The notes beneath the pieces were generated by a model. The model made no database searches and was not told where the DNA came from. It saw only the letters and a list, made by a program, of their open reading frames with translations. A stretch of DNA of 40,367 bases from a virus. Each line of letters starts with the position of its first letter. Position 1 is the stretch's first letter. Both the position numbers and the translations under genes were made by a program. Positions 2,973 through 40,367 of the stretch are shown in pieces. The stretch covers positions 1-40,367 of the IMG/VR virus record IMGVR_UViG_3300046045_000002, one strand, 5' to 3'.

Positions 2973-3536
2973 ATGATCACGAAGACCGAGCAGGGCAAGC
3001 GAGTCACCACCCCGTGGGGCGCTGGCACCGTCGAGTACCGCACTGACGGGTACGCGGGCGAGGTTGATTACTTCCTGGTCACCCTGGACGTTCCGGGCGA
3101 GTATGGCGTGACGCAGGTTCACGTGAAGCCCGAGGACATGCGGCCCGAGGTGCAGCCGGAACCGCGCACGATCCGGTTCGAGTCGACCGTGTGCGGACGC
3201 TGCAAGGGTGCCGGTCGGCGGAACGACGCCGGATGGGGCGCGAACCATCACGGAATCTGCTACCGGTGCCACGGCGCCGGGACGGTACTGACGGGCAACG
3301 GCTACCGGGCGTCACAGGCGTACAGCAAGATGCGTGATGAGCGCCTCGGCGCCACGTGGGGCGAACTCGCCGACGGCGAGGTTTTCCAGCACGACGGGAA
3401 GTACTACCGCAAGGGCGAACACGAGTGGCTGCGCCTCGCTGACGGGATCAAGGTTCACCGCCACAACGGCCCGGCAACCCGGAAGATGTGGAAGGAGATT
3501 GCCGCCCGCTACAAGGGCGCAACGCTGGCCTACTGA
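2973..3536 (+). CDS. Hypothetical protein with DnaJ-type CxxCxGxG zinc-finger repeats
   Basis: ATG preceded by gggagacggaag. Contains CGRCKGAG and CYRCHGAG. Confidence 0.6.
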   Translation: MITKTEQGKRVTTPWGAGTVEYRTDGYAGEVDYFLVTLDVPGEYGVTQVHVKPEDMRPEVQPEPRTIRFESTVCGRCKGAGRRNDAGWGANHHGICYRCHGAGTVLTGNGYRASQAYSKMRDERLGATWGELADGEVFQHDGKYYRKGEHEWLRLADGIKVHRHNGPATRKMWKEIAARYKGATLAY

Positions 3537-3549
3537 ACCGCCCGAGGGG

Positions 3550-3572
3550 CACCTACTAGTCGCTAGTAGGTG
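3550..3572. repeat. 23-bp palindrome copy 3 (centre tcg), extended by ggg/ccc (3547..3575) plus a T-rich run
   Basis: cacctactagtcgctagtaggtg followed by ccctttcttttt. Terminator-like. Confidence 0.95.
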
Positions 3573-3746
3573 CCCTTTCTTTTTAGCCCGAAAGGCTTTC
3601 TTAGCTAAACTAATCGTTCACAAGATCCTAACGTTTTACTTGATCCTTGCACCACGCACGCAGATTCGGACTACAGCGCTCCGCATACTGATGTTGACCT
3701 TTCAAATGTGCCGTTTACCGGTACCGGGGCAGTAGGGGTGCCCGTG

Positions 3747-5974: not shown

Positions 5975-7720
5975 GTGTACGCTCGGGGCATGACACCTTC
6001 AGTCCGCGCGGCCGTCGAGGTCGCCAGCGTTCACGGGGCGGCAGACGTAGCAGCTATCTACGTTAGGCAGTCCCGCAAGAAAGCTGACGGTTCCGAGGCA
6101 TCCCCCGCCGTTCAGGTCGAGGAATCCGAGAAAAAGGCTATCGCCCTCGACCTGCGGTCGCTGCCCGTCTACTCGGACGTCGGCATTTCCGGCTACGACC
6201 CGAACGCGGAGCGCCCGGCATTCGAGCGCATGCTCAAGGATGCTGCCGCCGGTAAGTTCTCGAAAATCATCGTGTACTACATGAGCCGATTCTCTCGGCA
6301 AGAGCCGCTAGAGGTGCTCGCAGTAGTCCGCGAACTCTGGTCGTACGGAATCACCATCATTTCCGTGACCGAGGGCGAATTCCGGCCCGACGACTTCGGC
6401 AGCCTCATTCACCTCCTGGCCCGACTGGAAGGAAACCACAAAGAGAGCAAGCTGAAATCAATCAACGTCAAGAAGACGAAACAAAAGGCGCGCAACCTCG
6501 GGGGCTACATGGGCGGACCACCGCCGTACGGGTTCCACACGCGCAAGGTGCTGAAAGACGGCGTGGCCATTCAGGAACTTGTGCCCGACTGGAAGGTGCA
6601 AGCACCGATCGTGCGTGACCTAGTCGCCTACATGCTGGAGCACCGCAACGACCCGGCAGACAAGTTCGGAAAGCACCCGGCGTCAATCCTCGGCGCGTGC
6701 GAATGGCTGAACGCCCACCCGCAAGCCAAACCCCGCCGTGGCGAGACGTGGAAGGACGCGAGCGTTACCCGACTGCTCATCGACCCCCGGCTAGCCGGAT
6801 TCGCCGCCGACTACGTGTACGAGAACGCAGCCGACGAGGAACGGCGCCGGAAGACACGTGCCTACGTAATCCAGCGGGACGACGACGGGCACGAGATCAT
6901 CGGAAACGAAGCAATCGTGACCCCCGCTGACTGGTACACGCTGCAAGAACACCTGCGCAGCCGGGCGAACAAAGGCCGTGCCTCGAACGGCGAATCACTG
7001 TTCGGCGGGTCGGGATTGGTCGACTGCGAGTGCGGGAAGCTGTTCACGTTCTTTTGGGCGCGCAAGACAGACGTCAAGAACTACCGGTGCCCGCGCACCC
7101 GTGTGGACGACGTCGGCCGGACGCACGACGGCGGGAACAGCATTTCGGCGCTGCACCTCGAAGACTGGGTTGCCCGACGCATCTTCGCGCTGATCACCAC
7201 ATCGGCGGGCGACGAGGAAACGCAAGAAATCCTGCTAGAGGCGACTAGGCGCTACGGACGGCGCGTCGAGGCACCGCAGACGGCGGGCGAGCGCACAGAG
7301 CTGGTCCGCGCACGTGCGGCCGACACACAAGCGCTGAACGACCTATACGACCGCGAAGAAGCGGGCGACTACGACGACCCGATCGGCCGAAAGCGGTTCC
7401 GTGACCGCAAAGACAAGATCTTGACCCGGATCAAGGCAGCCGAAAGCCGCCTAGCCGAACTGGACACGATCGAGACACCGGCGCTACCTATCGAGCAGTG
7501 GCTACCCGAGGACGCCGACGCCGACCCGATCGGCCCGGGGTCGTGGTGGCACGGCGCAAGCCTCGACCAGCGTCGGGACATGGTGGCGCTGTTCGTAGAG
7601 CGCATCACGGTCCATAAGGCGGCAAGCAAGGGCGGCAACTACAACGGCGTGGTGTTCAACGCTGGCAGCCGCGCGGAGATTACGTGGGCGAGGCCGCACG
7701 ACGACGAGGAAGACGCCTAG
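5975..7720 (+). CDS. int: Large serine recombinase (integrase)
   Basis: 581 aa. N-terminal resolvase-type motif AAIYVRQSRKK, zinc-ribbon-like CECGK...YRCPR and a C-terminal coiled-coil-like region. The start is either GTG 5975 or ATG 5990. Confidence 0.9.
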   Translation: MYARGMTPSVRAAVEVASVHGAADVAAIYVRQSRKKADGSEASPAVQVEESEKKAIALDLRSLPVYSDVGISGYDPNAERPAFERMLKDAAAGKFSKIIVYYMSRFSRQEPLEVLAVVRELWSYGITIISVTEGEFRPDDFGSLIHLLARLEGNHKESKLKSINVKKTKQKARNLGGYMGGPPPYGFHTRKVLKDGVAIQELVPDWKVQAPIVRDLVAYMLEHRNDPADKFGKHPASILGACEWLNAHPQAKPRRGETWKDASVTRLLIDPRLAGFAADYVYENAADEERRRKTRAYVIQRDDDGHEIIGNEAIVTPADWYTLQEHLRSRANKGRASNGESLFGGSGLVDCECGKLFTFFWARKTDVKNYRCPRTRVDDVGRTHDGGNSISALHLEDWVARRIFALITTSAGDEETQEILLEATRRYGRRVEAPQTAGERTELVRARAADTQALNDLYDREEAGDYDDPIGRKRFRDRKDKILTRIKAAESRLAELDTIETPALPIEQWLPEDADADPIGPGSWWHGASLDQRRDMVALFVERITVHKAASKGGNYNGVVFNAGSRAEITWARPHDDEEDA

Positions 7721-7743
7721 ACGGCGCTGTGAGCCCCTGGACG

Positions 7744-7779
7744 GCCCCGGATGGTCCCTGCGACTGTCCGGGGCTTTTT
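7744..7779 (+). terminator. Intrinsic terminator after int
   Basis: gccccgga (7744..7751) / tccggggc (7767..7774) followed by ttttt. Confidence 0.65.
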
Positions 7780-7872
7780 CGTGCGCTCAGACGGCCGTCT
7801 GTGGCTTTGGGGTGGTCGGCATAAGCGGAGCGCGACCGTCCGGTTACCTGGGGTGGTCAGACAGCGGGGGTG

Positions 7873-7966
7873 GGATGACGAATGACGAATTTGATAGTCA
7901 TCTGTGTATCCCTTAAGAGCCTCTATAGACATACCGAGATCGTTGTTCGTTTCGTCATTCGTCATC
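7873..7966. repeat. Inverted-arm element, copy A (94 nt)
   Basis: The arm GATGACGAATGACGAA (7874..7889) is perfectly complementary to TTCGTCATTCGTCATC (7951..7966). The 27-nt core gtatcccttaagagcctctatagacat (7906..7932) is identical to the core of copy B. Confidence 0.9.
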
Positions 7967-7968
7967 AC

Positions 7969-7986
7969 GTAAACCGTTGCGCTCTA
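7969..7986 (+). promoter_or_regulatory. Early-gene motif copy 2 (GTAAACCGTTGCGCTCTA), upstream of the tRNA cluster
   Basis: 2 nt after element A and 129 nt upstream of the first tRNA. Confidence 0.55.
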
Positions 7987-8115
7987 GTAGGGAGTGAGGG
8001 AAGGTTCCCGCGCACGAATCTAAAACACTCCTCGGCGGACCGAGGACTTCCCCAAAATCCGCCCGGCGGTCGACTCCCGTGTCTCTCTCCCACGGTTTGA
8101 GCCTGCCGGGCACCT

Positions 8116-8188
8116 TGACGCGTAGCTCAGTCGGCAGAGCAAGGGATTGTTAATCCCTGGGTCGTTGGTTCGAGTCCAACCGTGTCAG
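8116..8188 (+). tRNA. tRNA-Asn (anticodon GTT)
   Basis: Cloverleaf folded by hand: acceptor tgacgcg/cgtgtca, anticodon stem aggga/tccct with loop ttGTTaa, T-arm gttgg-ttcgagt-ccaac. Confidence 0.85.
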
Positions 8189-8265
8189 CGGAGCGTACGA
8201 CGACCCCGTTTGAGGGGCTACGGGTGGCATGCACTCCCCAACCGCAGAGGCGGTTTCGTACGCAA

Positions 8266-8342
8266 CGGCATATAGCTCGAAGCGTGGTTAGAGCGCCGGT
8301 CTGATAAACCGGAGGTTCCAGGTTCGACCCCTGGTGTGCCGA
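8266..8342 (+). tRNA. tRNA-Ile (anticodon GAT)
   Basis: Acceptor cggcata/tgtgccg, anticodon stem ccggt/accgg with loop ctGATaa, T-arm ccagg-ttcgacc-cctgg. Confidence 0.85.
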
Positions 8343-8452: not shown

Positions 8453-8529
8453 GCCGCGTTAGCCCAATCGGTAGAGGCGTCGGTCTTAGGAACCGAAGGT
8501 TAGGGGTTCGAATCCCTTACGCGGTACCA
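8453..8529 (+). tRNA. tRNA with anticodon TAG (Leu by anticodon), short 5-nt variable loop, encoded CCA
   Basis: Acceptor gccgcgt/acgcggt, anticodon stem tcggt/accga with loop ctTAGga (anticodon 8487..8489), T-arm agggg-ttcgaat-ccctt, discriminator A, 3-prime cca. Confidence 0.75.
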
Positions 8530-8530
8530 C

Positions 8531-8553
8531 GACCTACTAGTCACTAGTAGGTG
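8531..8553. repeat. 23-bp palindrome copy 4 (centre tca; first base g instead of c)
   Basis: gacctactagtcactagtaggtg, starting 2 nt after the last tRNA. Confidence 0.9.
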
Positions 8554-8572
8554 CTCATGAAAGGCGGTCCCG

Positions 8573-9652: not shown

Positions 9653-9835
9653 GTGACGTTCCGAGGTCGCTACCTCGCTGTATCACAGAGTGTAGCTACC
9701 AATTCGGACATTATGTGCAGTAGGGGGGCATACCAAATCTCTTGCGACTACCATCTAGTGGACCCGGGCCCAGGGGAAAAACACATGGCCGCAGGTTAGG
9801 GGGTGGGGGGTCTGGCCCCGAAATCCCCGAAAAAC
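9653..9835. other. Candidate cos / packaging-recognition region
   Basis: 183-bp non-coding gap between the HNH and terS genes. G-runs tagggggg (9721..) and ttagggggtggggggtctggcccc (9796..9819). Three gctacc/actacc repeats. The ends themselves cannot be read from the sequence. Confidence 0.3.
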
Positions 9836-9858
9836 CACCTACTAGTGACTAGTAGGTG
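9836..9858. repeat. 23-bp palindrome copy 5 (centre tga)
   Basis: cacctactagtgactagtaggtg, 21 nt upstream of the terS ATG. Confidence 0.95.
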
Positions 9859-9879
9859 ACCGAAAGGGGGCGAAAACCC

Positions 9880-14020: not shown

Positions 14021-14022
14021 CT

Positions 14023-14045
14023 CACCTACTAGTCACTAGTAGGTG
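14023..14045. repeat. 23-bp palindrome copy 6 (centre tca)
   Basis: Starts 2 nt after the protease stop and ends 8 nt before the capsid ATG. Confidence 0.95.
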
Positions 14046-14053
14046 CTTCCCCG

Positions 14054-15424: not shown

Positions 15425-15949
15425 GTGGTGGCCGTGGTTACTCATTACGACCGTTTGCGAAACGCTGTTCGCCGGTCTATGAACCGCCACGGCCACCACC
15501 GAGGCCATGCCGTCAACCGCTTCGTTCACTCGCACCGACACGGAAAGCGGCCGACCAAGCCCCGAGGGCACAAGCCGCATGCGGCGCATAAGAAGCACCA
15601 CAAGCGGCGGCATTACCACCTAAAGCATCACCGGCACCTCAAGCACCATTACCACCTAAAGCACAAGCGCCATTACAAGCACCGGCGGCACGTGCTGCAC
15701 CACCGCCGACACCTGCGGCACCTTGCGAAGCACCTTCGGCACGTTAAGAAGCACCGCCGACACCTCAAGCATCATCGGCACGTGATCCACCACCGGAAGC
15801 ACCGCCGACACACGACGCACCGCCACTTGCACCGCAAGCACAAGCGGCACACGACGCACCACCGACGGCGGCACATACTCCACCGCCGACACACCACACA
15901 CCACCACCGCCGGGGGTCGACACACCGACGACACCGCCGTTACCGCTAG
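15425..15949 (+). CDS. His/Arg/Lys-rich low-complexity basic protein (174 aa from GTG 15425; alternative ATG at 15479)
   Basis: The only long + strand ORF in the 540-bp gap between the capsid and connector genes. Third codon positions are mostly C or G. By hand count 55 H, 41 R and 18 K, with one acidic residue. Confidence 0.55.
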   Translation: MVAVVTHYDRLRNAVRRSMNRHGHHRGHAVNRFVHSHRHGKRPTKPRGHKPHAAHKKHHKRRHYHLKHHRHLKHHYHLKHKRHYKHRRHVLHHRRHLRHLAKHLRHVKKHRRHLKHHRHVIHHRKHRRHTTHRHLHRKHKRHTTHHRRRHILHRRHTTHHHRRGSTHRRHRRYR

Positions 15950-16860: not shown

Positions 16861-17327
16861 TGACCATTCCTAGCAGCACCTCGCCCGCTGTTCGGGCCTA
16901 TCTCTTCACGCAGCTAACGGCGCAGCTACAGCCGGACGCGAACGTGACCACCGCGAGTCTCCTCGTGTGCTACGACGAACCCGGGCCGAATCAACCGGAC
17001 GACATTGTGTCGATCGGCAAGGTTCAGCGGCAGATCGGCGTTAACTCGCTTGTCGGCGGGGGTGGCGCCGGATGGCTTGATGAGCGGTACACGGTAGAGA
17101 TCGAAATCGACGTGTACCGAGGCAACGACGACCCGCAGTACGTCTATCAGCGGGCGTCCGACCTCGCCGACGCTGCCATTGCAGTGATCCGCACCGACCC
17201 GACTCTAGGCGGCAACGTACTGACGGCCCGCCCGCACACCTCGAACCACGAAGTCACGTGGGATGACCAGCACATGGGCCGACACGCCACGGTGACTATC
17301 GAGGTCGAGTGCTTCCAGCGCATCTAG
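16860..17327 (+). CDS. Neck / tail-terminator-like protein (155 aa)
   Basis: Position between the adaptor and major tail protein. ATG overlaps the previous stop (TAATG). Confidence 0.45.
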   Translation: MTIPSSTSPAVRAYLFTQLTAQLQPDANVTTASLLVCYDEPGPNQPDDIVSIGKVQRQIGVNSLVGGGGAGWLDERYTVEIEIDVYRGNDDPQYVYQRASDLADAAIAVIRTDPTLGGNVLTARPHTSNHEVTWDDQHMGRHATVTIEVECFQRI

Positions 17328-17328
17328 T

Positions 17329-17351
17329 CACCTACTAGTCGCTAGTAGGTG
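17329..17351. repeat. 23-bp palindrome copy 7 (centre tcg)
   Basis: Starts 1 nt after the stop at 17327 and ends 19 nt before the next start. Confidence 0.95.
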
Positions 17352-17370
17352 GTCGACCCTAGGAACCCCC

Positions 17371-17577: not shown

Positions 17578-18543
17578 ATGCCGCATTCTTCTAATCTCTC
17601 ATTCCTCGGAATTGCCAAGGAATCGACGCTAGGTACGCCGGTTGCGGCGACTGCCTATATCCCGGTCGACAAGCCTACGCCGAAGGACGCACTAACCCTC
17701 TTGGATGACAAGGGGCTGCGCGGTTCTATGGTCGAGGTCTACAACCAGATTGCCGGACCGAAGCATTCGACGTTTGACTTCGGCGGCGACGTCTTCCCGG
17801 ACACTATCGGTTGGATGCTAGCTGGTGTTCTCGGCGACCTTACGACCACGGGCGCTAGCGCGCCGTATACGCACGCTATGGCGGTTCTGAACACCTCGGA
17901 CGGACAGCCGAAGTCGTACACCCTCACCGACTACTACGCGACCGGCACACGGCAGTACGCGGGTGCGAAGTTCAGTGAGCTGGGATTCAAGTTCAACGGT
18001 GATTCCATGCTCACCTACTCGGCTAAGGCTACGGCGTTCGCCTCGAACACCACGACCGTGCCGACCCCGTCTTTCACCTCGATTCCGCCTATTGCCGCGT
18101 GGACTGGCGCTGTTCAGATCAACGGCACGCCGGTTACGACCGTCCTCGACGGCGAGGTAACCATCAAGCGGCCCGTGACCGTGATTCAGCCGGTCGCCGG
18201 TTCGCAGAACCCCGGCAACCTCTGGTCGGGTCCCGTGTCTGTCGACGGCAAGATGACGCTTGTCATGGAAGACGACACGCAGCTAACCAACTACCTGAAC
18301 GTTACGCAGCCGTCCCTAGACATCAACTTTGCTGCGGGAACCGGCGCCTCGGCGATTCAGGTGAAGCTACACATGTCGAATGTCACCTACAGCGCTGCGG
18401 ATATCGGGCGAGGTAAGGACTACGTCGAAATTGCCGTGTCGTTCGCCGCCCGTGCGAACTCGACCGACGTCGGCACCTCGGGCGGCTACTCGCCCATCAA
18501 GGCCACCATTCAGAACGCGATCACCTCGGGAACTTACGCCTAA
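17578..18543 (+). CDS. Major tail protein
   Basis: 321 aa, directly upstream of the chaperone pair and tape measure gene. Confidence 0.8.
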   Translation: MPHSSNLSFLGIAKESTLGTPVAATAYIPVDKPTPKDALTLLDDKGLRGSMVEVYNQIAGPKHSTFDFGGDVFPDTIGWMLAGVLGDLTTTGASAPYTHAMAVLNTSDGQPKSYTLTDYYATGTRQYAGAKFSELGFKFNGDSMLTYSAKATAFASNTTTVPTPSFTSIPPIAAWTGAVQINGTPVTTVLDGEVTIKRPVTVIQPVAGSQNPGNLWSGPVSVDGKMTLVMEDDTQLTNYLNVTQPSLDINFAAGTGASAIQVKLHMSNVTYSAADIGRGKDYVEIAVSFAARANSTDVGTSGGYSPIKATIQNAITSGTYA

Positions 18544-19682: not shown

Positions 19683-19686
19683 CCAC

Positions 19687-19709
19687 CACCTACTAGTAAC
19701 TAGAAGGTG
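19687..19709. repeat. 23-bp palindrome copy 8, degenerate (centre taa; one right-arm mismatch)
   Basis: cacctactagtaactagaaggtg, ending 20 nt before the tape measure ATG. Confidence 0.85.
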
Positions 19710-19729: not shown

Positions 19730-22303
19730 ATGGGCGCGTTGCCCCCGATTTTCATCGAGTTCCTCGGTAAGAAGACCGGGTTTTCGGCGACCGCAAAGGG
19801 TGTCAAGACTGAGCTAGCCGAGGTCGAGGCGGCGGGCGGCGGCAATATGAAGCGGCTAGGTGCCGTCTCTAAGGCTGCCCTACTCGGTATCGGCGTAGCC
19901 GCCGCTGTTACCGCCGTCAAGACTGTGCACATGGCGGCCGACTTCCAGACGGCCATGACCCGCGTTCAGACGGGCGCCGGTGAGTCGGCGTCCAACATGA
20001 AAATGGTCAGTAATGGCGTGCTCGCCATGGCTGGTCAAGTCGGGCAGTCGACACAACAGCTAACGCAGGGTCTCTATACGGTCGAGTCGGCCGGTTACCA
20101 CGGGTCCGCAGCGCTGCAAGTGCTCAAGACGTCGGCCATGGGCGCAAAGGTCGGTGCCGCCGACCTAGGCACGGTGACTGACGCTGTCACGACGGCGCTG
20201 AACGCGTATCACATGTCGGCCTCGAACGCCGTACCGGTCATGAACGCGCTAGTCGCGACCGAGGCCGAGGGTAAGACGAACATGGAAGCGCTAGCCGGTT
20301 CCATGGCCTCGATTCTGCCGGTCGCCTCGGCCGCACATGTTGGCCTGAACGAGGTTCTCGGCGCCATGGCCACGATGACGGCGCAGGGTACTTCCGCCGA
20401 CGTTGCGGCGACCTACCTGCGGCAGACCATCGGGCAGTTGTCGAACCCGACGGCTAAGGCCGCAGCAACCATGAAGGGTCTAGGGCTAGACGCGACTAGC
20501 GTGTCTCAGGAACTGGGGCAGCGGGGTCTAGCCGCCACTCTGGACACCCTCACGACCGCCATTAAGAACAAGATGGGCCCGAGCGGTACGGTCCTTATCG
20601 ATACGCTGCAAAAGGCAGCGAAGAATTCCAAGGATTTCAACGGGCAGCTAGCTAAGGCGTCCGGGTCGCAGAAGACATACATCGGCGCCCTCGCAACCAT
20701 GGTCGGCGGTACAAAGTCGATGATGGGTGCGCTACAGCTAACCGGCGCGCACGCAAAGACGTTCGCCGACGACGTAAAGGGCGTCGAGGAACACGTTCGC
20801 AAGGGTGGTAAGTCGGTCGAGGGTTGGGCCGAGGTACAGAAGACCTACAACCAGCGAATGGCCGAGGCCAAGGGATCGTTGCAAGCCCTCGGTATCTCCA
20901 TAGGCAACGCGCTGTTGCCGACAGCCACAAAGCTAATGACGGTGTTCGGCAAGTTCGCCGGATTCCTCGCCACGCATCACACGGCCCTACTGCTGTTCGC
21001 CGCTGGCCTAGGTGCTGTTGCCCTCGGGCTGTCGGTCGCCGCTATCGCGTCGTGGGACTTCAACGAATCGCTACTCGCCGACCCACTGACGTGGATTGTC
21101 GTAGCGATCGTGGCCGTGGTGGTCGGTCTAGTCGAACTGGTCATGCACTGGAAGCAAGTAGCCGCGTGGCTAACCGGCGTGTGGCACTCGGTCGTACACG
21201 GCCTAGGGGATCTCTGGCACTGGCTAGAGCGCGAGACGCTAAGCGCGTGGCACTCGATCGAGAGTGGGATCACCACGGCGTGGCACGCGGTAGCCGCGTT
21301 CTTTTCCTCGGCGTGGCACGCTGTCGCCGACCCGATCGTTAACGCGTGGCACTGGATCGTGCGCACCACGATGTCAGTGTGGAACGGCATAGTCGGATTT
21401 TTCAAAAAGTGGTGGCCACTTTTGCTGGTCATTTTCCTCCCGTTCGTCGCGCTAATCGTCTCGCTGTGGAATCACTTTCATAAGCAAATCGAGTCGACGG
21501 CCAAGTCAATTTGGAACGGAATTAAGTCGTTCCTAAAGGGCGTGTGGGACGGAATTGCCGCCGTAGCCGAGGCCGCGTGGTCGCTGATCAAGAAATACAT
21601 AGTTTCGCCGATCGAGGACGTGTGGCACTGGCTACAGTCGATTTGGCGGACCGTGTCTCACTGGCTAGAGGGCGAGTGGCGGGGGATCGAGCAAACGGCG
21701 TCCTCGCTGTGGTCGAGCATCAAGCGGAACATGATTCAGCCCCTCACCGACGCGTGGCACTCGATCACGCGCCTTATGGGGCAGATCAAGGACACGATTT
21801 CCAACAAGCTGCATGACGCGTGGAACGCTGTAAAGAGCGTCGGTTCATGGTTCCTGAGCATCGGTTCCGACATCGTGCACGGAATCATCAGCGGTATCGA
21901 GGGCGCGGCGGGTGGTCTATTCGACTCACTCAAGAACCTCGCGTCGAATGCGCTTAGCTCCGCTAAGTCGTTCCTCGGCATCAACTCGCCGTCGCGTGAG
22001 TTTGCCGAACAGGTCGGCCACTGGATTCCGCACGGTATCGCCGACGGTGTGCGCAACTCTGCCCACGTCGTCAAGGAAGCTGTGAACAGCGCCACGGGTG
22101 CCGCTCTAGCGCGCGTGAACGTTGGCGGGCAGCTTTCCCTAGGTATGGGCACCTCGGGCGGCTACGGCGGTTCTACGGTCGTCGTGAACGTGCATGTCGA
22201 GGGTTCCGTCATGGCCGAGCAGGACCTACGAGACGTGCTACAGCGCGAGATGTTGCGGCTAGGTTCGCGCAACTCGCAGACGTGGCAGCCGTATCGGCGC
22301 TAA
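19730..22303 (+). CDS. Tape measure protein
   Basis: 857 aa from ATG 19730 (preceded by aaggggg). Central hydrophobic segments and repeated AWH / WHxV motifs. Confidence 0.9.
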   Translation: MGALPPIFIEFLGKKTGFSATAKGVKTELAEVEAAGGGNMKRLGAVSKAALLGIGVAAAVTAVKTVHMAADFQTAMTRVQTGAGESASNMKMVSNGVLAMAGQVGQSTQQLTQGLYTVESAGYHGSAALQVLKTSAMGAKVGAADLGTVTDAVTTALNAYHMSASNAVPVMNALVATEAEGKTNMEALAGSMASILPVASAAHVGLNEVLGAMATMTAQGTSADVAATYLRQTIGQLSNPTAKAAATMKGLGLDATSVSQELGQRGLAATLDTLTTAIKNKMGPSGTVLIDTLQKAAKNSKDFNGQLAKASGSQKTYIGALATMVGGTKSMMGALQLTGAHAKTFADDVKGVEEHVRKGGKSVEGWAEVQKTYNQRMAEAKGSLQALGISIGNALLPTATKLMTVFGKFAGFLATHHTALLLFAAGLGAVALGLSVAAIASWDFNESLLADPLTWIVVAIVAVVVGLVELVMHWKQVAAWLTGVWHSVVHGLGDLWHWLERETLSAWHSIESGITTAWHAVAAFFSSAWHAVADPIVNAWHWIVRTTMSVWNGIVGFFKKWWPLLLVIFLPFVALIVSLWNHFHKQIESTAKSIWNGIKSFLKGVWDGIAAVAEAAWSLIKKYIVSPIEDVWHWLQSIWRTVSHWLEGEWRGIEQTASSLWSSIKRNMIQPLTDAWHSITRLMGQIKDTISNKLHDAWNAVKSVGSWFLSIGSDIVHGIISGIEGAAGGLFDSLKNLASNALSSAKSFLGINSPSREFAEQVGHWIPHGIADGVRNSAHVVKEAVNSATGAALARVNVGGQLSLGMGTSGGYGGSTVVVNVHVEGSVMAEQDLRDVLQREMLRLGSRNSQTWQPYRR

Positions 22304-22315
22304 CCGATTGGGGGT

Positions 22316-22338
22316 CACCTACTAGTCACTAGTAGGTG
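22316..22338. repeat. 23-bp palindrome copy 9 (centre tca), extended to 33 bp (22311..22343) by ggggt/acccc
   Basis: Exact arms. Ends 25 nt before the GTG at 22364. Confidence 0.95.
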
Positions 22339-25834: not shown

Positions 25835-25842
25835 TCGAGGGG

Positions 25843-25865
25843 CACCTACTAGTCGCTAGTAGGTT
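25843..25865. repeat. 23-bp palindrome copy 10 (centre tcg; last base t)
   Basis: cacctactagtcgctagtaggtt, ending 5 nt before the GTG at 25871. Confidence 0.9.
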
Positions 25866-29148: not shown

Positions 29149-29153
29149 CCCTT

Positions 29154-29193
29154 GCCCCGTGCCAGCCCTAACCGGCGGGTGCGGGGCATTTTT
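29154..29193 (+). terminator. Stem-loop plus T-run after the dNMP kinase gene
   Basis: gccccg (29154..29159) / cggggc (29182..29187) followed by attttt. Confidence 0.45.
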
Positions 29194-29202
29194 GCGTTCG
29201 GG

Positions 29203-29225
29203 CACCTACTAGTGACTAGTAGGTG
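29203..29225. repeat. 23-bp palindrome copy 11 (centre tga)
   Basis: Exact arms. Ends 67 nt upstream of ATG 29293. Confidence 0.95.
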
Positions 29226-29292
29226 GTGGTGCGCGTGCCGCGCCGTGTGCTTAGCTACTCCCACAACAACAGAGAACAACGAAGGGGCGGAC

Positions 29293-31140
29293 ATGAACAT
29301 TCAGCTTGGGCGGGGCGGCAAGGTCCACTACGCGGGCGAGCCGGACGGTTACATGCCCGCCCCGAAGTGCGGCGGCAACCGCGCTGTTGAGGGCTACAGG
29401 GCCGTTAAGGCGGAAGTCGACTGTAAGAACTGCCTCAAGATCATGGCCGCCGAGGCGGCTGCGCAGGAAGCGCCCGAGGTCGAGGCGCCCACCGAGGACA
29501 AGGGAGAGACCGTGACCGTTACCGAGGTTCCCGCCGACACGGAGTACGACGCCGCTTTCGAGCGTGGTCGTTCGCTGGGCAAGGATCACGCCGAGGCGCA
29601 CGACTACGCGGCCGAGGTAGTGAGGAACGCGCGGATTCGCGCCGAGCAGGCCACCGAAAAGCTTCAGTACCGCACCATGCACCCCGTGACCGGCAAGCGT
29701 GTCCGTATTCCCTCGCCTAAGCCCGCTAAGTGGGCAGCGTGGGAGAACGGCAACCTTTTCGGCCTCGCCGACGTGGAAACCGTGGCCGAGGCTATTTCCT
29801 CGCTCCCCAAGGGGCGGGAATTCAACGTCACGGCTCTTTTCCCGATTTCCCCCCGCGATGCCGCACAGTCTGGTATCATCGCGCCCGATGTTCCGGTTAG
29901 CGCCGGAACCGCCACCACAGAGGAGAACGAAATGCCCCCTCGCAAGCGCGCTGCCGCTAAGCCCGCTAAGACGGCCGAGGTCGCCCCCGAGGCGCCCGAG
30001 GACACTGCCCCCGCCGACGCTGCCCCGATCGAGGGCGACACGCCCGCCGAGGACACCGCCGACGCTATCCAGCGGGCTAAGGACATCATCGCGCAGGTTC
30101 TCGCAGCCGCCGAGGTCGGCGAGTCGGCCGACCCGAACCGCATCAAGGAACTCGCCGAATCGGCGGAGACAATCATCGGTGAGCTGCCCATGGAGCACCG
30201 CACGGGCCTGCGCGCTGCGCTGGAGGAGGCTAAGCGGGGCGAGTCCTACACGGCCGAGGGTCACGGTAAGGACGGAAAGAAGAAGACGGCGTCTAAGGCC
30301 GTCGCTAAGAAGACGGCTGCGGCTGCGGCTACCAAGGAAACGCAGGACTACAAGCAAGCCATTCCCGACGCCGAAAAGGTCGTCGCCGACGTAGCCGCCG
30401 CGTACGCAAAGGGCGTCGAGTTCGAGCGCGAGAACTCCAACGCTGCCCGCTCGATCGCCGAAAAGGTGCTCGCCGCCCGTCTGTTCCTTTCCGACAAGGA
30501 TGGACACCCGGACTACAACGGCAAGTCGAACGCGGCAAAGGTGCTGTCGGGTGTCGTGTACGCCGCCGCTGGTTCCGGGTTCGAGCGCACCGAGGAAAAC
30601 GAGGACGCCCTAGACCGTCTGGTGAAGTCGGTGCAGAACCTGCGGAATGACGTTCTCGTGAAGTACGTCCGCAACATCGGCAAGGAAGACGCTCACCGGT
30701 TCTTCCCCAAGGCATTCGCGGCCGACCCCGAGGCCGACCCGACCGAGGCCATTCAGAAGTTCTACAAGATTCCGGAGCGCAGCACGTTCGAGATTCAGGC
30801 CGAAAAGCGCCGTCTCGAAAGGGCGCAGCGTAAGGCGCTTGCTGCGGGCAAGGAAAAGGAAGCTAAGGAACTCGGCGAGGCGATCAAGACCGTCGGAAAG
30901 ACCGAGGCCGAGGGCGGCGAGGGTGAGGGCGAGGCTGCCGCCGCGCCTAAGACGGCCGCCGAAAAGCGGAGGGCTAAGCACCTCGCTGCGATCGAGGCCG
31001 CAACGGAAAAGTTCGCCGACCTCGAAAAGGAAATCGAAAAGATCGATGCGGAGGAGGCCGCCGAACTAGTGGCCAAGCTGGAAGCGTTCAACGGCATGTC
31101 GGCGACGCTCACGGCCATGTTGAAGGGTAAGACCGCGTAG
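29293..31140 (+). CDS. Large acidic Ala/Glu/Lys-rich protein of unknown function (615 aa)
   Basis: ATG preceded by gaaggggcggac. N-terminal Cys motif PKCGG...CKNC, AKKT/PAKT basic tracts and long low-complexity acidic stretches. Confidence 0.7.
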   Translation: MNIQLGRGGKVHYAGEPDGYMPAPKCGGNRAVEGYRAVKAEVDCKNCLKIMAAEAAAQEAPEVEAPTEDKGETVTVTEVPADTEYDAAFERGRSLGKDHAEAHDYAAEVVRNARIRAEQATEKLQYRTMHPVTGKRVRIPSPKPAKWAAWENGNLFGLADVETVAEAISSLPKGREFNVTALFPISPRDAAQSGIIAPDVPVSAGTATTEENEMPPRKRAAAKPAKTAEVAPEAPEDTAPADAAPIEGDTPAEDTADAIQRAKDIIAQVLAAAEVGESADPNRIKELAESAETIIGELPMEHRTGLRAALEEAKRGESYTAEGHGKDGKKKTASKAVAKKTAAAAATKETQDYKQAIPDAEKVVADVAAAYAKGVEFERENSNAARSIAEKVLAARLFLSDKDGHPDYNGKSNAAKVLSGVVYAAAGSGFERTEENEDALDRLVKSVQNLRNDVLVKYVRNIGKEDAHRFFPKAFAADPEADPTEAIQKFYKIPERSTFEIQAEKRRLERAQRKALAAGKEKEAKELGEAIKTVGKTEAEGGEGEGEAAAAPKTAAEKRRAKHLAAIEAATEKFADLEKEIEKIDAEEAAELVAKLEAFNGMSATLTAMLKGKTA

Positions 31141-31178: not shown

Positions 31179-31184
31179 CGCCAC

Positions 31185-31207
31185 CACCTACTAGTCACTA
31201 GTAGGTG
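31185..31207. repeat. 23-bp palindrome copy 12 (centre tca)
   Basis: Exact arms. Ends 19 nt before ATG 31227. Confidence 0.95.
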
Positions 31208-31226
31208 GTCGAGGGAGGGAAGTGAA

Positions 31227-32019: not shown

Positions 32020-32040
32020 GCGCCCCTCTGAGCCCCTCGC

Positions 32041-32078
32041 AGCCCCGCTAGGCCCCTCCGGCCCGGCGGGGCTTTCTC
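32041..32078 (+). terminator. Stem-loop at the start of module B
   Basis: agccccgc (32041..32048) / gcggggct (32066..32073) followed by ttctc. Confidence 0.5.
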
Positions 32079-32118
32079 ATGCCCGCAGACGGGCGCGTGT
32101 GGCCTCGACAGCGGGCAG

Positions 32119-32211
32119 GATGACGAGTGACGACTTTTACATGAACCTCGGTATCCCTTAAGAGCCTCTATAGACATTCCTGAACGACTACCAATTTCGT
32201 CATTCGTCATC
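32119..32211. repeat. Inverted-arm element, copy B (93 nt)
   Basis: Arms GATGACGAGTGACGAC (32120..32135) and TTCGTCATTCGTCATC (32196..32211). The 27-nt core at 32152..32178 is identical to copy A. Spacer lengths are the same as in A (16 and 17 nt) but the spacer sequences differ. Confidence 0.9.
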
Positions 32212-32223
32212 GGCCGGTCGGCC

Positions 32224-32241
32224 GTAAACCCTTGCGCTCCC
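32224..32241 (+). promoter_or_regulatory. Early-gene motif copy 4 (GTAAACCCTTGCGCTCCC)
   Basis: 12 nt after element B and 37 nt upstream of ATG 32279. Confidence 0.55.
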
Positions 32242-32278: not shown

Positions 32279-33151
32279 ATGGCCACCGTCCGCACCGTCC
32301 ACCGAGGCGGAAGCCGGTTCTATGTCCATCCGGACACGCCAGAGATCAAGGTTCCCGGCGTCACGTCCGTAATCGGCATGCTGCCTAAGCCGTTCCTCGC
32401 CCCGTGGAACGCAAAGCTAGTCGCCGAACTCGCCGTAGACTCCCTGCCCTTTGTCGAGCAGATGGCACAGCGCGACCGGCAAGGGGCCGTCGACTTCCTT
32501 AAGGGTGCCGCCCGCCGGTACACAAAGGTGCGCGCCGAAATCGGGTCCGCCGCTCACGATCTGTTCGAGCGCATGATCCGGGGCGAGGGCGACCTCACCG
32601 AGCGCGATTACCGGGGCCGGTTCCGCGTGAGCGTTCACCCCGACCTCGAACCGTACCGGGCCAACTTCGCTGAGTTCCTGGAAGTCGTGAACCCGGAACT
32701 TGTCGGCGCCGAAGATGTGGCGTGGTCCGATGAGCACGAGTACGCGGGGTCGTTCGACGCCATGCTTCGTGTGTGGCTGGACGACGACAACAACCCGACG
32801 CCGGATCGCTCGGGCACGCCGGTTCTGCTTATGGCCGACTGGAAGACGTCTAAGGACATTCACGCCGAGGTCGCCCTACAGATGGCGGCTTACGCCTACG
32901 CCGACCGGATCATCAAGCCGGACGGCACCAGTGTGCCCATGCCGGAATTCGACGGCGCTGCGGTGCTGCACATCACGCCCGATCAGTGGACGTTCAAGCC
33001 CGTCCGTATCGAGCGCGACGTGTTCGACTTCTTCCTTTCGCTGCGGCACGTCTTCAACTGGGACCGCGACGTGTCTAAGACCGTCGTAGGCCGTGCCATT
33101 GCGCGCAGCGCGGGGCGGCTGGTCACCGGTACACAGCGGCGTGCGCGATGA
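32279..33151 (+). CDS. RecB-family PD-(D/E)XK exonuclease
   Basis: 290 aa. GSFDAML, LLMADWKTSKD and QMAAYAYA (QxxxY) motifs. No Cas4-type Cys cluster. Confidence 0.75.
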   Translation: MATVRTVHRGGSRFYVHPDTPEIKVPGVTSVIGMLPKPFLAPWNAKLVAELAVDSLPFVEQMAQRDRQGAVDFLKGAARRYTKVRAEIGSAAHDLFERMIRGEGDLTERDYRGRFRVSVHPDLEPYRANFAEFLEVVNPELVGAEDVAWSDEHEYAGSFDAMLRVWLDDDNNPTPDRSGTPVLLMADWKTSKDIHAEVALQMAAYAYADRIIKPDGTSVPMPEFDGAAVLHITPDQWTFKPVRIERDVFDFFLSLRHVFNWDRDVSKTVVGRAIARSAGRLVTGTQRRAR

Positions 33152-33974: not shown

Positions 33975-34047
33975 GCGGTACCGAGGGGGCGGGAAAGCGG
34001 CCAAATCCTTTCCCGCCCTCGGCCAAAACACCTTGAACGGAGAGACT

Positions 34048-34746
34048 ATGGCGCTGCGCATTTTCGACACCGACCCGGACGCTAAGCCTAAGCCGCGCAC
34101 GAACTACAACGATGACTATGTTGCCCGCTGGTACATGGGGCGGCAGGTCGACAACCAGCCCGAGGCGCTGAGCGAGTGGCGCGTGATGACCGGCGACCGT
34201 GAGATCGGGCAGGCTATCGCGCAGCTTTTCGGCGGACAGCCGGTCGAGACGGATTCCAGCGCGGACAAGTTCATCGAGGTTCTCACCACGTCGGCAAAGG
34301 TGCCGGTGATCCTCGACGGCCCTAAGTCCATCACTTCGGACATGAAGCTGTGGAACCGGGGCAAGCTGGTTCACCACTGTGACGGCGTCGACTTCCTGTC
34401 GCACAACGACGAAAAGCGTGTTGGCACGGCGTGCGGCTGCCCGCAGCTTTTCGCCGAGCGTAAGCAGGCTGCGCGCGACTACATGGGCCCCTCGCCCTCG
34501 ATCAACGTGCGTTTCCGCCTCGCCGATGATCCCGACCTCGGCGTGTGCCACTTCCAGACGACGTCATGGACGCTGGCCGAGGTGCTGCACGAGCACGACG
34601 ACGCGCTTCGGCGAATCGGTGGCGAGGCGTACGCGGAACTGTCTATCGAACTGGTCGAGTACACGACTAAGAAGGGTCGGCACGTCGAGTACCTCAAGCC
34701 GGTAATCCGTGTCGTCAAGGCGTGGCAAGACGCCATAGCCGACTAG
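34048..34746 (+). CDS. Hypothetical protein with a Cys/His cluster (232 aa); possible recombination partner of the exonuclease
   Basis: ATG preceded by ggagagact. HHCDG...GTACGCP. The function is inferred from position only. Confidence 0.35.
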   Translation: MALRIFDTDPDAKPKPRTNYNDDYVARWYMGRQVDNQPEALSEWRVMTGDREIGQAIAQLFGGQPVETDSSADKFIEVLTTSAKVPVILDGPKSITSDMKLWNRGKLVHHCDGVDFLSHNDEKRVGTACGCPQLFAERKQAARDYMGPSPSINVRFRLADDPDLGVCHFQTTSWTLAEVLHEHDDALRRIGGEAYAELSIELVEYTTKKGRHVEYLKPVIRVVKAWQDAIAD

Positions 34747-35820: not shown

Positions 35821-35827
35821 CGTGTTT

Positions 35828-35850
35828 CACCTACTAGTCACTAGTAGGTG
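35828..35850. repeat. 23-bp palindrome copy 13 (centre tca)
   Basis: Exact arms. Ends 13 nt before the GTG at 35864. Confidence 0.95.
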
Positions 35851-36565: not shown

Positions 36566-36949
36566 GTGCGCCCTGATTGGGATTCGTACTTTCTCGGCAT
36601 TGCGCGCGCTGTGGCTGCCCGTGCCGACTGCACCCGCCGACAGGTTGGCGCCGTGGTGGTCGACACGGGGAACCGTGTTCTCTCGGTGGGGTACAACGGT
36701 GCCCCGCCGGGAGTTCCCGGATGCCTCACAGCGGGTGCGTGCCCTCGGGGCCGACTGAGTAAGGCCGACGTCCCCTCGGGAACCGGCGATTACGACCATT
36801 GCGTAAGCGTGCACGCCGAGGCTAACGCGCTGTTGTATTCCGACCCAGTGCGCCGGATTGACGGCACGCTGTATTGCACTGATGAGCCGTGCCCCGGCTG
36901 CCGGAAGCTGATCGAGGGCGCTGGAATTGCCCGGGTGGTGGTCGCGTAA
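36566..36949 (+). CDS. dCMP deaminase
   Basis: VHAEANAL and EPCPGC zinc-binding motifs. GTG preceded by ggaaggctgaca. Confidence 0.85.
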   Translation: MRPDWDSYFLGIARAVAARADCTRRQVGAVVVDTGNRVLSVGYNGAPPGVPGCLTAGACPRGRLSKADVPSGTGDYDHCVSVHAEANALLYSDPVRRIDGTLYCTDEPCPGCRKLIEGAGIARVVVA

Positions 36950-36963
36950 ACCCTTGCGCTCTA
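36946..36963 (+). promoter_or_regulatory. Early-gene motif copy 7 (GTAAACCCTTGCGCTCTA, consensus)
   Basis: Its TAA is the deaminase stop. 23 nt upstream of ATG 36987. Confidence 0.55.
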
Positions 36964-36986
36964 TGGCGGGCGAGGAAAGGAAAACC

Positions 36987-39425: not shown

Positions 39426-39439
39426 CCGTCCGCTGTGGG

Positions 39440-39462
39440 GCACCTTCTAGTCACTAGTAGGT
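39440..39462. repeat. 23-bp palindrome copy 14 (centre tca; one left-arm mismatch), extended by gggg/cccc (39436..39466)
   Basis: caccttctagtcactagtaggtg followed by cccctttg. Ends 25 nt before the polymerase ATG. Confidence 0.9.
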
Positions 39463-39487
39463 GCCCCTTTGCTGTGCAAGGGGAGAC

Positions 39488-40367
39488 ATGCGCATCTATC
39501 AACACACCATTGCGGGCGACCTTGTTCACGTCTATGTGCCCGAGGACGTTGCCGACCTCGACGTGTTCCTTCGGTGGGCGCAGGATGCCGACCGTGTGGG
39601 CCCTATCGCCCTCGACACCGAGACGACCGGGCTCGATATCTACTCGCCTGCCTATCGGCTGCGTACGGTCCAGTTCGGCAACGCGCGGGAAGCGTTCGTA
39701 ATCCACTACGAGCGTGGGGGAGAGTTCGCGCGGGCAGCCGTCGAGGTGCTGCGTAACGCCCGCCGGTTCCTGATCCATAACGGCCCGTTCGATTGGCTAG
39801 TCCTCGACCGGCACGCCGGTATTCCGCTGGAGAGCCTCGCCCCGCGCACGCGTGACACAAAGATCCTGTCAACGCTGGTCGACCCCCGACAGCCGCAAGA
39901 GGGTGGCATAGGGACCGGCCTCAAGCCGGTTTCCGGGCACTACGTCGACCCGTCGGCGCCGGACACGCAAGGGGACCTTACGGCCGTCTTCCGGTCCCTG
40001 GGGCTCACTAAGGCCACGGGGTGGGCCGGTATCGACCTCGACCACCCCACCTACAACCTCTATGCCGGTCTTGACGTCATCCTTGCTGCCCGGGTCGAGC
40101 CTCGCCTCACAGCGGAACTCACCCGCCTCGGGGTGCGTGACGCCCTGGTGCAGTACGAGCACGAGATAGCCCGTATCTGCGCGCACATGCAGCGTGCTGG
40201 GATGGTGCTGGATATCCCGTACACGCGGAACCTGAACGATTCCCTCGGCGTCGAGGCGCGCGGCTATGCCGAATCTGCCCGCCGGTACGGCGTCGAGAGT
40301 GTGAACAGCACCCGGGCGATAGCCGAGGCGCTGATAGGCATGGGGGAGGTTCTCACCGAACGGACGG
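39488..40367 (+). CDS. DNA polymerase I (family A), N-terminal part with the 3-5 exonuclease domain; runs off the window end and continues at position 1
   Basis: ATG preceded by caaggggagac. Exo I-like IALDTETTGLD. The ORF is open to the end of the window and in frame with 1..1095. Confidence 0.9.
   Translation, partial: MRIYQHTIAGDLVHVYVPEDVADLDVFLRWAQDADRVGPIALDTETTGLDIYSPAYRLRTVQFGNAREAFVIHYERGGEFARAAVEVLRNARRFLIHNGPFDWLVLDRHAGIPLESLAPRTRDTKILSTLVDPRQPQEGGIGTGLKPVSGHYVDPSAPDTQGDLTAVFRSLGLTKATGWAGIDLDHPTYNLYAGLDVILAARVEPRLTAELTRLGVRDALVQYEHEIARICAHMQRAGMVLDIPYTRNLNDSLGVEARGYAESARRYGVESVNSTRAIAEALIGMGEVLTERT
40241..40367. repeat. 127-bp exact duplicate of 1..127 (circular-assembly overlap)
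   Basis: Base-for-base identity by direct comparison. It lies inside the polymerase ORF. Confidence 0.95.

Follow-up and report, generated by a model that had tools for sequence, protein, structure and literature searches.

Why would a temperate phage keep two copies of the same elaborate palindrome far apart in its genome, each at the head of a major operon? We asked this question of a phiC31-like temperate actinophage (a Streptomyces phage) represented by positions 1 to 40,367 of IMG/VR virus record IMGVR_UViG_3300046045_000002, a stretch of 40,367 nt that we call the window. All its genes point rightward and follow the gene order of phiC31. One copy of the element (copy A) lies just after int, the serine integrase gene (5975-7720, plus strand), which is followed by tRNAs and late genes; the other (copy B) precedes the gene for a Cas4-type exonuclease, the homologue of phiC31 gp1 (32279-33151, plus strand). 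On balance, we favour the view that each copy serves as an origin-type site at which the primase-helicase of the phage is loaded, with binding, melting and initiation inferred from sequence comparisons. To our knowledge, the replication origin of phiC31 and its relatives has not been mapped. The literature that we searched contained neither a mapped phiC31 origin nor an account of the duplication, but older phiC31 papers fell outside this search and an earlier mention is possible.

The two copies share an intricate anatomy. In copy A, the left arm (GATGACGAATGACGAA, 7874-7889) carries two tandem repeats, or iterons, of the form (A)TGACGA(A) with a period of 7, and the right arm (TTCGTCATTCGTCATC, 7951-7966) carries two more in inverted orientation, perfectly complementary to the left ones. 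Between them lies an AT-rich interior (7890-7949, GC ~0.40) made of a left spacer of 16 nt (7890-7905), a 27-nt core dyad (GTATCCCTTAAGAGCCTCTATAGACAT, 7906-7932; GTAT..CTTAAGAG-C-CTCTATAG..ACAT) and a right spacer of 17 nt (7933-7949). Copy B repeats this plan, with a left arm of two tandem iterons that differs from that of copy A by two changes (GATGACGAGTGACGAC, 32119-32134), an AT-rich interior (32135-32194) comprising a left spacer (32135-32150), the identical 27-nt core (32151-32177) and a right spacer (32178-32194), and a right arm with two inverted tandem iterons (32196-32211). Each arm is thus 16 nt long and consists of two tandem TGACGAN heptamers. The spacers have equal lengths in the two copies but match at only 8/16 (left) and 4/17 (right) positions. 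Both interiors have a GC content of ~0.40-0.42, against 0.64 for the genome, and are among the most easily melted parts of the window: when its 60-mers are ranked by duplex stability (mean dG -93.1, standard deviation 4.3), copy A comes lowest (-73.2) and copy B third lowest (-75.7). Doublets of TGACGAA are confined to the two elements within the window, and a repeat search of the window recovers the pair. All that the initial annotation had stated about the sequence of the element (its arms, the 27/27 core, the lengths and divergence of the spacers, the shared layout) checked out, as did two further features that it had reported, a 10-bp direct repeat in copy A (tggggtggtc, 7808-7817 and 7849-7858) and 13-codon frames on the plus strand.

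Is this pair peculiar to one phage? Equivalent elements of 76-114 nt are present in phiC31, phiBT1, TG1, Heather, the Arthrobacter phage KeAlii and about 60 relatives in IMG/VR. The relatives were found with a degenerate pattern of the arms in IMG/VR viral contigs and tied to the window by protein synteny; two other matches to the pattern (L001 and L004, in our numbering of loci) are long runs of heptamers without homologous context, probably unrelated, and were set aside. Searches for identity were less rewarding: the exact 27-nt core had no match in IMG/VR, and a DNA search of INPHARED returned no match for the element, a larger 7-kb query matching in the tRNA region alone. Two copies were found in 6/6 complete genomes examined, and also in the 10 IMG/VR loci that are long enough (L012, L031, L057, L070, L073, L083, L084, L088, L089 and contig 3300025529_000020). 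In the latter contig (37.8 kb) one copy is upstream of the exonuclease homologue (L005) and the second upstream of the terminase region (L007).

The placement of the copies is conserved, too. One lies upstream of the gp1 exonuclease, and the other upstream of the tRNA and late genes or just after int. In phiC31 one member of the pair separates gp54 from gp1 and the other separates int from tRNA-Thr (~21,665-21,760 and ~40,444-40,540 of AJ006589), where the copies share 120 nt with 76% identity. A dyad element is found 43-75 nt upstream of the exonuclease gene in ~60/77 loci having a homologue of this gene, and in loci extending far enough a second copy of the same iteron class follows 15-16 kb further downstream, as a rule right ahead of the tRNA cluster, with or without a homologous integrase adjacent. 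These syntenic positions are the same although the phage proteins are merely 45-65% identical. The more distant KeAlii (L092) has its elements at 3450-3545 and 18347-18461; their iterons are GTGACG, repeated with a period of 9, and their core dyad is another one (GTGTTCAAGA..TCTTGAACAC). In this phage the serine integrase gene is immediately followed by the second copy, which precedes the tRNA by 4.8 kb, so that a strict link of the second copy to the tRNA/late promoter does not hold. Conservation in related phages had been set beforehand as one test that could refute a function for the element, and we found the architecture at the same two positions in dozens of them.

Such recurrence bears on the humblest explanations of the pair. 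The terminal inverted repeats and small size recall a mobile insertion akin to miniature inverted-repeat transposable elements, and ATG-initiated short frames in both copies could specify a micro-peptide, either of 13 amino acids on the plus strand or beginning with MTNDE on the minus strand. We regard both as scarcely credible and reject them. A mobile insertion would hardly be present in exactly two copies, both at syntenic positions shared by such divergent phages; target-site duplications are lacking, homology extends to the intergenic module around the element, and the core and the region lack the matches in IMG/VR and INPHARED just mentioned. As for the peptide, its plus-strand frame is destroyed in relatives, where it stops at once (GTGACGAAGTGACG arms read GTG ACG AAG TGA, and GTGTAG arms read GTG TAG), and the spacers differ at all codon positions. 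The minus-strand open reading frames (83 and 64 amino acids) share just the stretches encoded by arms and core.

If the element is maintained by selection, what is being selected? Across the family the outline is constant, with 2-3 tandem repeats per arm at a period of 7-10 nt, arms facing each other, and an AT-rich interior of ~60 nt (mean GC 0.43 for 63 distinct elements, against 0.63 for their loci), and the central dyad, which resembles ATCCCTAWAG-N-CTWTAGGGAT, is kept across iteron classes. The iterons themselves change: the motif is GTGACG in most phages, ATGACG in the window (a class also found in L028, L070 and L086), CTGACG in three, GTGTAG in seven and GTGCAG in Heather. Even the closest relative that we found, L012, whose primase is 88% identical, has iterons of the form CTGAC(A/G)A and not ATGACGA (elements at 2711-2803 and 18022-18114). 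Hence, spacer, arm and core sequences vary while the two-copy architecture persists family-wide, which strongly supports the earlier proposal of selection on arms, core and spacing, as opposed to a recent duplication. Moreover, the motif that varies between phages (TGACG, TGTAG, TGCAG) is uniform in all repeats of both copies within any one phage. Uniformity within a phage combined with switching between phages is the signature of a cognate pair of protein and DNA site.

The same comparison informs the idea of a structured small RNA, also put forward initially, or of an RNA hairpin that acts in cis, such as an antitermination or processing signal found once in each operon. The elements do fold far better than shuffled sequences on both strands (z = -3.7 to -6.2), and one of the two changes in the copy B arm retains a G-U pair. 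Yet any DNA palindrome folds well, and fold scores therefore carry little weight. The arm mismatches in 71 elements comprise 547 transversions, 186 wobbles on the minus strand and 115 on the plus strand; transitions make up 35% of them, where about one-third is expected without bias, and nothing in these counts suggests preserved pairing on either strand. The early copy of Heather can pair only ~7 arm bases, and the tandem direct repeats inside the arms would be superfluous for a stem. Furthermore, the element stands downstream of a terminator and upstream of a promoter motif, its core flips orientation between the L012 copies, and the only Rfam matches in the window are tRNAs. We thus consider a role as RNA very improbable and have discarded it.

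Since the iteron motif switches between phages, we searched for a protein that tracks the switch. Open reading frames were called and clustered in 58 loci, and 11 widely shared families were aligned, the proteins being those encoded within +/-10 kb of the primase gene; classes were contrasted in 50 non-redundant phages (42 of TGACG type, 8 of TGYAG type). No protein family was restricted to one iteron class by presence or absence among the clustered frames. For whole proteins, the nearest neighbour belonged to the same class in 0/8 cases for the gp3-type recombination directionality factor (RDF), 3/8 for the exonuclease, 3/8 for the DNA polymerase, 2/7 for the repressor, and 5/8 for both the gp12 homologue and the primase-helicase. 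The signal in the primase-helicase is concentrated at its end. Sequence windows before residue 674 give agreements of 0-4/8, residues 749-823 give 7/8 (area under the curve, AUC, 0.88), and residues 788-832 give 8/8 (AUC 0.93). Located between the early element and the gene of the primase, the RDF gene (34033-34746, plus strand) nevertheless shows no association; physical linkage therefore does not explain the co-variation of the primase C-terminus.

Pairs of primases with similar N-terminal parts give the same picture. Among pairs of primases differing at less than 25% of their first 700 residues, the C-terminal distance averages 0.216 when the iteron class is the same (n=87) and 0.430 when it differs (n=31). 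The primases of L040, L041 and L057 (GTGTAG), for instance, are 16-18% distant from that of L024 (CTGACG) in their N-terminal part and 41-52% distant in the C-terminus. When ~5,300 alignment columns of the 11 families were scanned, residue 810 of the primase alone separated the classes with zero exceptions, being I, V or Q with TGACG and M, N or T with TGYAG. Neighbouring positions (K/R and T/S) are almost as clean, giving the patterns [RK][RK]K[TS]xxG[IV] and x[TVK]R[AVSG]xxG[MNT], respectively; neither gp12 nor the repressor has a column that discriminates the classes. These observations indicate that the arms are probably read by the C-terminus of the primase-helicase.

This enzyme, the homologue of phiC31 gp9a, is the proposed initiator. 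Its gene (36927-39425, plus strand) encodes Toprim, D5_N and superfamily 3 (SF3) helicase domains; Pfam reports Toprim, D5_N and DUF5906, and PHROG labels it a DNA primase. In phmmer searches it matches PriRep5 of the staphylococcal pathogenicity island (SaPI) SaPI5 (PDB 7OLA, E = 1.5e-5) and also poxvirus D5, and a profile of its C-terminal region aligns into the C-terminal domain of PriRep5 (5e-6). The putative iteron reader is a winged-helix-like domain at residues ~750-832 (nt ~39175-39422). An AlphaFold2 model of residues 690-832 (pLDDT 81) shows helices followed by a beta-hairpin (model residues 113-124), and in this model the class-discriminating residues fall in the hairpin, a "wing" following a helix. 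Foldseek comparisons with the PDB gave sub-threshold matches to the C-terminal domain of African swine fever virus PrimPol, a related primase-helicase, and to many winged-helix domains. The 50 best Foldseek matches did not include 1KA8, the P4 alpha domain, and neither sequence nor fold searches gave a significant match to the P4 alpha C-terminal domain. One homologue of the primase-helicase carries PF03288.

Could the elements instead be purely transcriptional control sites, a generalised version of the OL/OR-like idea in the initial annotation? The arms would then be operators for a phage protein, possibly the C-terminal domain of the primase-helicase itself, that represses, activates or loops the first early and the first tRNA/late promoters, without any role as origin. 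The flanks make this idea attractive. Aligned, both copies show the same order of a stop codon, tgagcccct, a hairpin with a T-run, cagacgg, acagcggg, the element and the motif CGTAAACC..TTGCGCTC. The hairpin upstream of copy A (7743-7780, plus strand) resembles a terminator and closes the int transcription unit; its counterpart upstream of copy B (32044-32080, plus strand; minimal stem of the scan, 32056-32071) is a terminator-like GC hairpin with a T-rich tail. The motif is part of a 21-nt promoter-like sequence (CGCGTAAACCCTTGCGCTCTA) that has eight copies in the window, just upstream of genes (at 1551, 7966, 26944, 28580, 32221, 33515, 33954 and 36943), and the element adjoins just two of the eight, the two operon-leading ones. 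One of these (CACGTAAACCGTTGCGCTCTA, 7966-7986, plus strand) lies directly after copy A, ahead of the tRNA and late genes, while the other (32221-32241, plus strand) begins 10 nt past copy B and 38 nt before the exonuclease start (32279). In most relatives, too, a gap of 43-75 nt separates the end of the early copy from the exonuclease start, and two distant sites with identical cores could allow looping.

Several observations speak against this alternative. The spacing between element and promoter is far from constant (0, 10 or 25 nt in some phages, ~190 nt for the late copy of TG1, and in KeAlii the tRNA is 4.8 kb away), a fixed-length, AT-rich and minimally stable interior is not needed for an operator, and the protein segment that co-varies best belongs to a replication enzyme, whereas the sigma-like gp12 co-varies less (5/8, no discriminating column). 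Nor is the immunity repressor a good partner. The repressor c homologue is encoded at 29152-31140 (plus strand), and it has operators of its own: a 23-bp palindrome (CACCTACTAGTCACTAGTAGGTG) present in 13-14 copies in intergenic gaps all around the genome is the counterpart of the CIR (conserved inverted repeat) repressor operators of phiC31 (CCTACTCACGTGAGTAGG, 11 copies). The initial suggestion of an OL/OR-like pair of four-site operators serving immunity is not borne out in that form, because these palindromes are separate from the element and changes in the arms are not mirrored in the repressor (2/7). Overall, control of transcription alone seems to us possible but unlikely.

The CIR-like palindromes were located at 1153-1177, 2865-2889, 3547-3575, 8529-8554, 9834-9860, 14021-14048, 17327-17353, 19685-19709, 22314-22338, 25841-25865, 29201-29229, 31183-31209, 35826-35850 and 39439-39463, many of them within GC stems that look like terminators. 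In place of the window's promoter-like motif, phiC31 uses a different one in the same role (GGGTTGCCGACTCCCTTAC, 9 copies) and Heather a third (GGGAATCCCCTCCGCTCTAG). This motif and the sigma-like gp12 homologue (1608-2426), which has a sub-threshold match to Sigma70_r2 (E = 1.2e-4) and whose homologues in TG1 and phiBT1 are labelled sigma factors in RefSeq, may form another co-varying pair. Inside the element, a consensus scan for host promoters of the sigma-70 type found none, and manual inspection gave poor -10 candidates at most. The CTATAG sequence was likened for a time to T7-type promoters, an idea that we dropped because the annotated genes include no single-subunit RNA polymerase. Upstream of copy B, an outer stem (GCGCCCCTCTG at 32021-32031 with CAGACGGGCGC at 32087-32097; 10/11 complementary) encloses the terminator hairpin and is also present in L025; the conserved cagacgg is its 3' half. 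The counterpart near copy A is a local palindrome instead (cagacggccgtctg, 7790-7803).

The core dyad raises a question of its own, since its conservation across iteron classes suggests a second, more conserved reader or a defined priming site. In L012 the cores of the two copies are reverse complements of each other (CCTATAGAGACTCTTAAGAG and TCTTAAGAGACTCTATAGG); the core therefore works regardless of direction, and the palindromic element is apparently able to invert. A link between the core and primase start sites of CTA/TTA type is speculation only. The same facts (a second, more conserved partner, two copies per genome, the overall symmetry and the inverted core of L012) would suit another kind of DNA site, with a phage protein on the arms and a host factor that bends the core: a site for partition, or one resembling a centromere, in the style of P1 parS, a site for genome organisation or synapsis, or an accessory to recombination or packaging. 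We judge this quite unlikely. These phages integrate by means of a serine integrase, and a partition function is therefore not expected; in phiBT1, attP precedes int; the cos site of phiC31 is at another place, as inferred from its linear record, which starts upstream of gp31 and ends after gp30, the ends presumably being the cos ends; and no candidate partner gene co-varies with the arms.

Of the functions initially listed for the element, the evidence thus favours that of an iteron-plus-AT-rich origin. We propose that the arm repeats are iterons that would be read by the winged-helix-like C-terminal domain of the primase-helicase. Two hexamers could load head-on across the ~60-bp interior, melt its AT-rich centre and prime, leading to bidirectional replication, as has been proposed for the Rep and PriRep proteins of SaPI. 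The two copies might be two origins, or one origin plus a cis-acting enhancer, for which the ori and crr sites of P4 offer a parallel. The conserved core would probably be recognised separately, by another factor, or else be a priming site. Each copy is preceded by a terminator and followed by the leading phage-specific promoter of a major rightward unit; loading may therefore be coupled to transcription of that unit, or influence it. Taken one step further, the copies might be dual-purpose modules, origin and promoter at once, in which helicase loading, or forks moving co-directionally with transcription, would time or license the early and late operons, making an early-to-late switch coupled to replication, and a second factor would read the dyad; we offer this extension tentatively, with little confidence.

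A number of points weigh against the origin. The co-variation is correlative, stems mainly from a single class contrast (8 vs 42 phages) and concerns proteins sampled +/-10 kb around the primase gene. The winged-helix fold match is not statistically significant (best E = 0.06, none reaching 0.001), and Pfam calls no DNA-binding domain in the C-terminus of the window's protein. A simple unwinding element needs no core identical at 27/27 positions, and the core dyad falls outside the model. Two origins would be unusual for a phage genome of 40 kb, and unlike those of SaPI the elements are remote from the gene of the initiator, 4.7 kb upstream and ~8.7 kb downstream of it. GC and AT skews along the genome show no origin-like switch. 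Finally, a position immediately upstream of promoters suits a transcriptional role equally well.

The rest of the window adds some context. Its ends carry an exact direct repeat of 127 nt (1-127 = 40241-40367), which points to a circular or concatemeric assembly. The gene for a family A DNA polymerase is divided over the permuted ends (39497-40366 and 13-1092) and is thereby overlooked in lists of open reading frames that ignore the wrap; the apparent absence of a polymerase was an artefact of this split. Between tRNA-Asn (8116-8189) and tRNA-Leu (8453-8529) there is a third tRNA (8266-8342; Rfam score 58.9 bits) that was missed by ARAGORN. Degenerate tandem repeats with periods of 18-39 nt (AAGCACC.../CACCGC...) occupy 15587-15905 on the plus strand, in or overlapping the open reading frame 15425-15949, and probably encode a low-complexity repeat segment of a protein. 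The segment 3576-3649, which adjoins a CIR-like palindrome, ranks second in the genome for low stability of a 60-mer (GC 0.37). Within it, ttagctaaactaatcg is similar, in reverse, to the gttagttaggctaa motif found directly after int in phiC31, phiBT1 and Heather; the segment could be attP-related or a block of stops in all frames.

These questions matter beyond one record, because Streptomyces genetics relies on phiC31 and its relatives as workhorse phages and as a source of integrases and vectors. If our reading is correct, it locates the origin of phiC31, names the likely initiator domain and points to the residues that set iteron specificity. It would also mean that the design of a self-loading primase-helicase with opposed iterons, as in SaPI and P4, reaches from satellites to full-size temperate actinophages, and cognate pairs of iteron and wing could serve as orthogonal replication modules for Streptomyces.

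How does such an arrangement compare with known systems? The closest parallel is with SaPI, whose Rep proteins use a C-terminal winged helix to recognise iterons of 5-6 nt and initiate replication (PMC9371898). At the SaPI origin, two or more iterons in opposite directions flank an AT-rich centre on each side, and two hexamers probably self-load on either side of it (PMC9371898). Our candidate initiator is likewise a homologous primase/SF3-helicase, with a C-terminal segment matching that of PriRep5; at least two opposed short iterons flank an AT-rich centre in the window and in 63 related elements; and the cognate pairing of iterons and initiators known from SaPI is seen here as co-variation. 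The differences are nevertheless substantial. SaPI have a single ori immediately downstream of rep, whereas there are two copies per genome here, each with a terminator before it and an operon-leading promoter after it; the repeats have a period of 7-10 nt; and the AT-rich centre holds a strictly conserved dyad core, unlike SaPI origins as described in PMC9371898. Other comparisons are looser. The CIRs of phiC31 and the OL/OR sites of lambda are also repeated palindromic DNA sites in intergenic positions with phage-specific sequences, and are bound by proteins, but CIRs are simple palindromes of 17-23 bp that lack an AT-rich interior and form a separate repeat family. The origins of papillomaviruses (bound by E1) and polyomaviruses (bound by large T) show dyad symmetry, with inverted short recognition repeats around an easily melted centre on which two SF3 hexamers assemble; their origin-binding domains are unrelated, these are eukaryotic viruses and they have a single origin, which makes the analogy one of mechanism only.

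The satellite phage P4 provides the other half of the comparison. In its alpha protein, a primase (Toprim) and an SF3 helicase are followed at the C-terminus by a winged-helix domain that binds DNA at the origin (1ka8), and in the winged-helix domains of such enzymes the recognition helix and the wing touch DNA (PMC2777425). The enzyme of the window has the same domain order. Replication of P4 needs two separated cis sites, ori and crr, that have the same octamer iterons and are bound by alpha, and these would parallel the two copies found here. The parallel is imperfect, as crr is a tandem duplication of 120 bp and not a second dyad element, and the P4 sites are 4.5 kb apart while the elements of the window are 16 and 24 kb apart on the circle. 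By analogy with both systems, the element of phiC31-like phages may be regarded as following the design of SaPI origins within the domain logic of P4.

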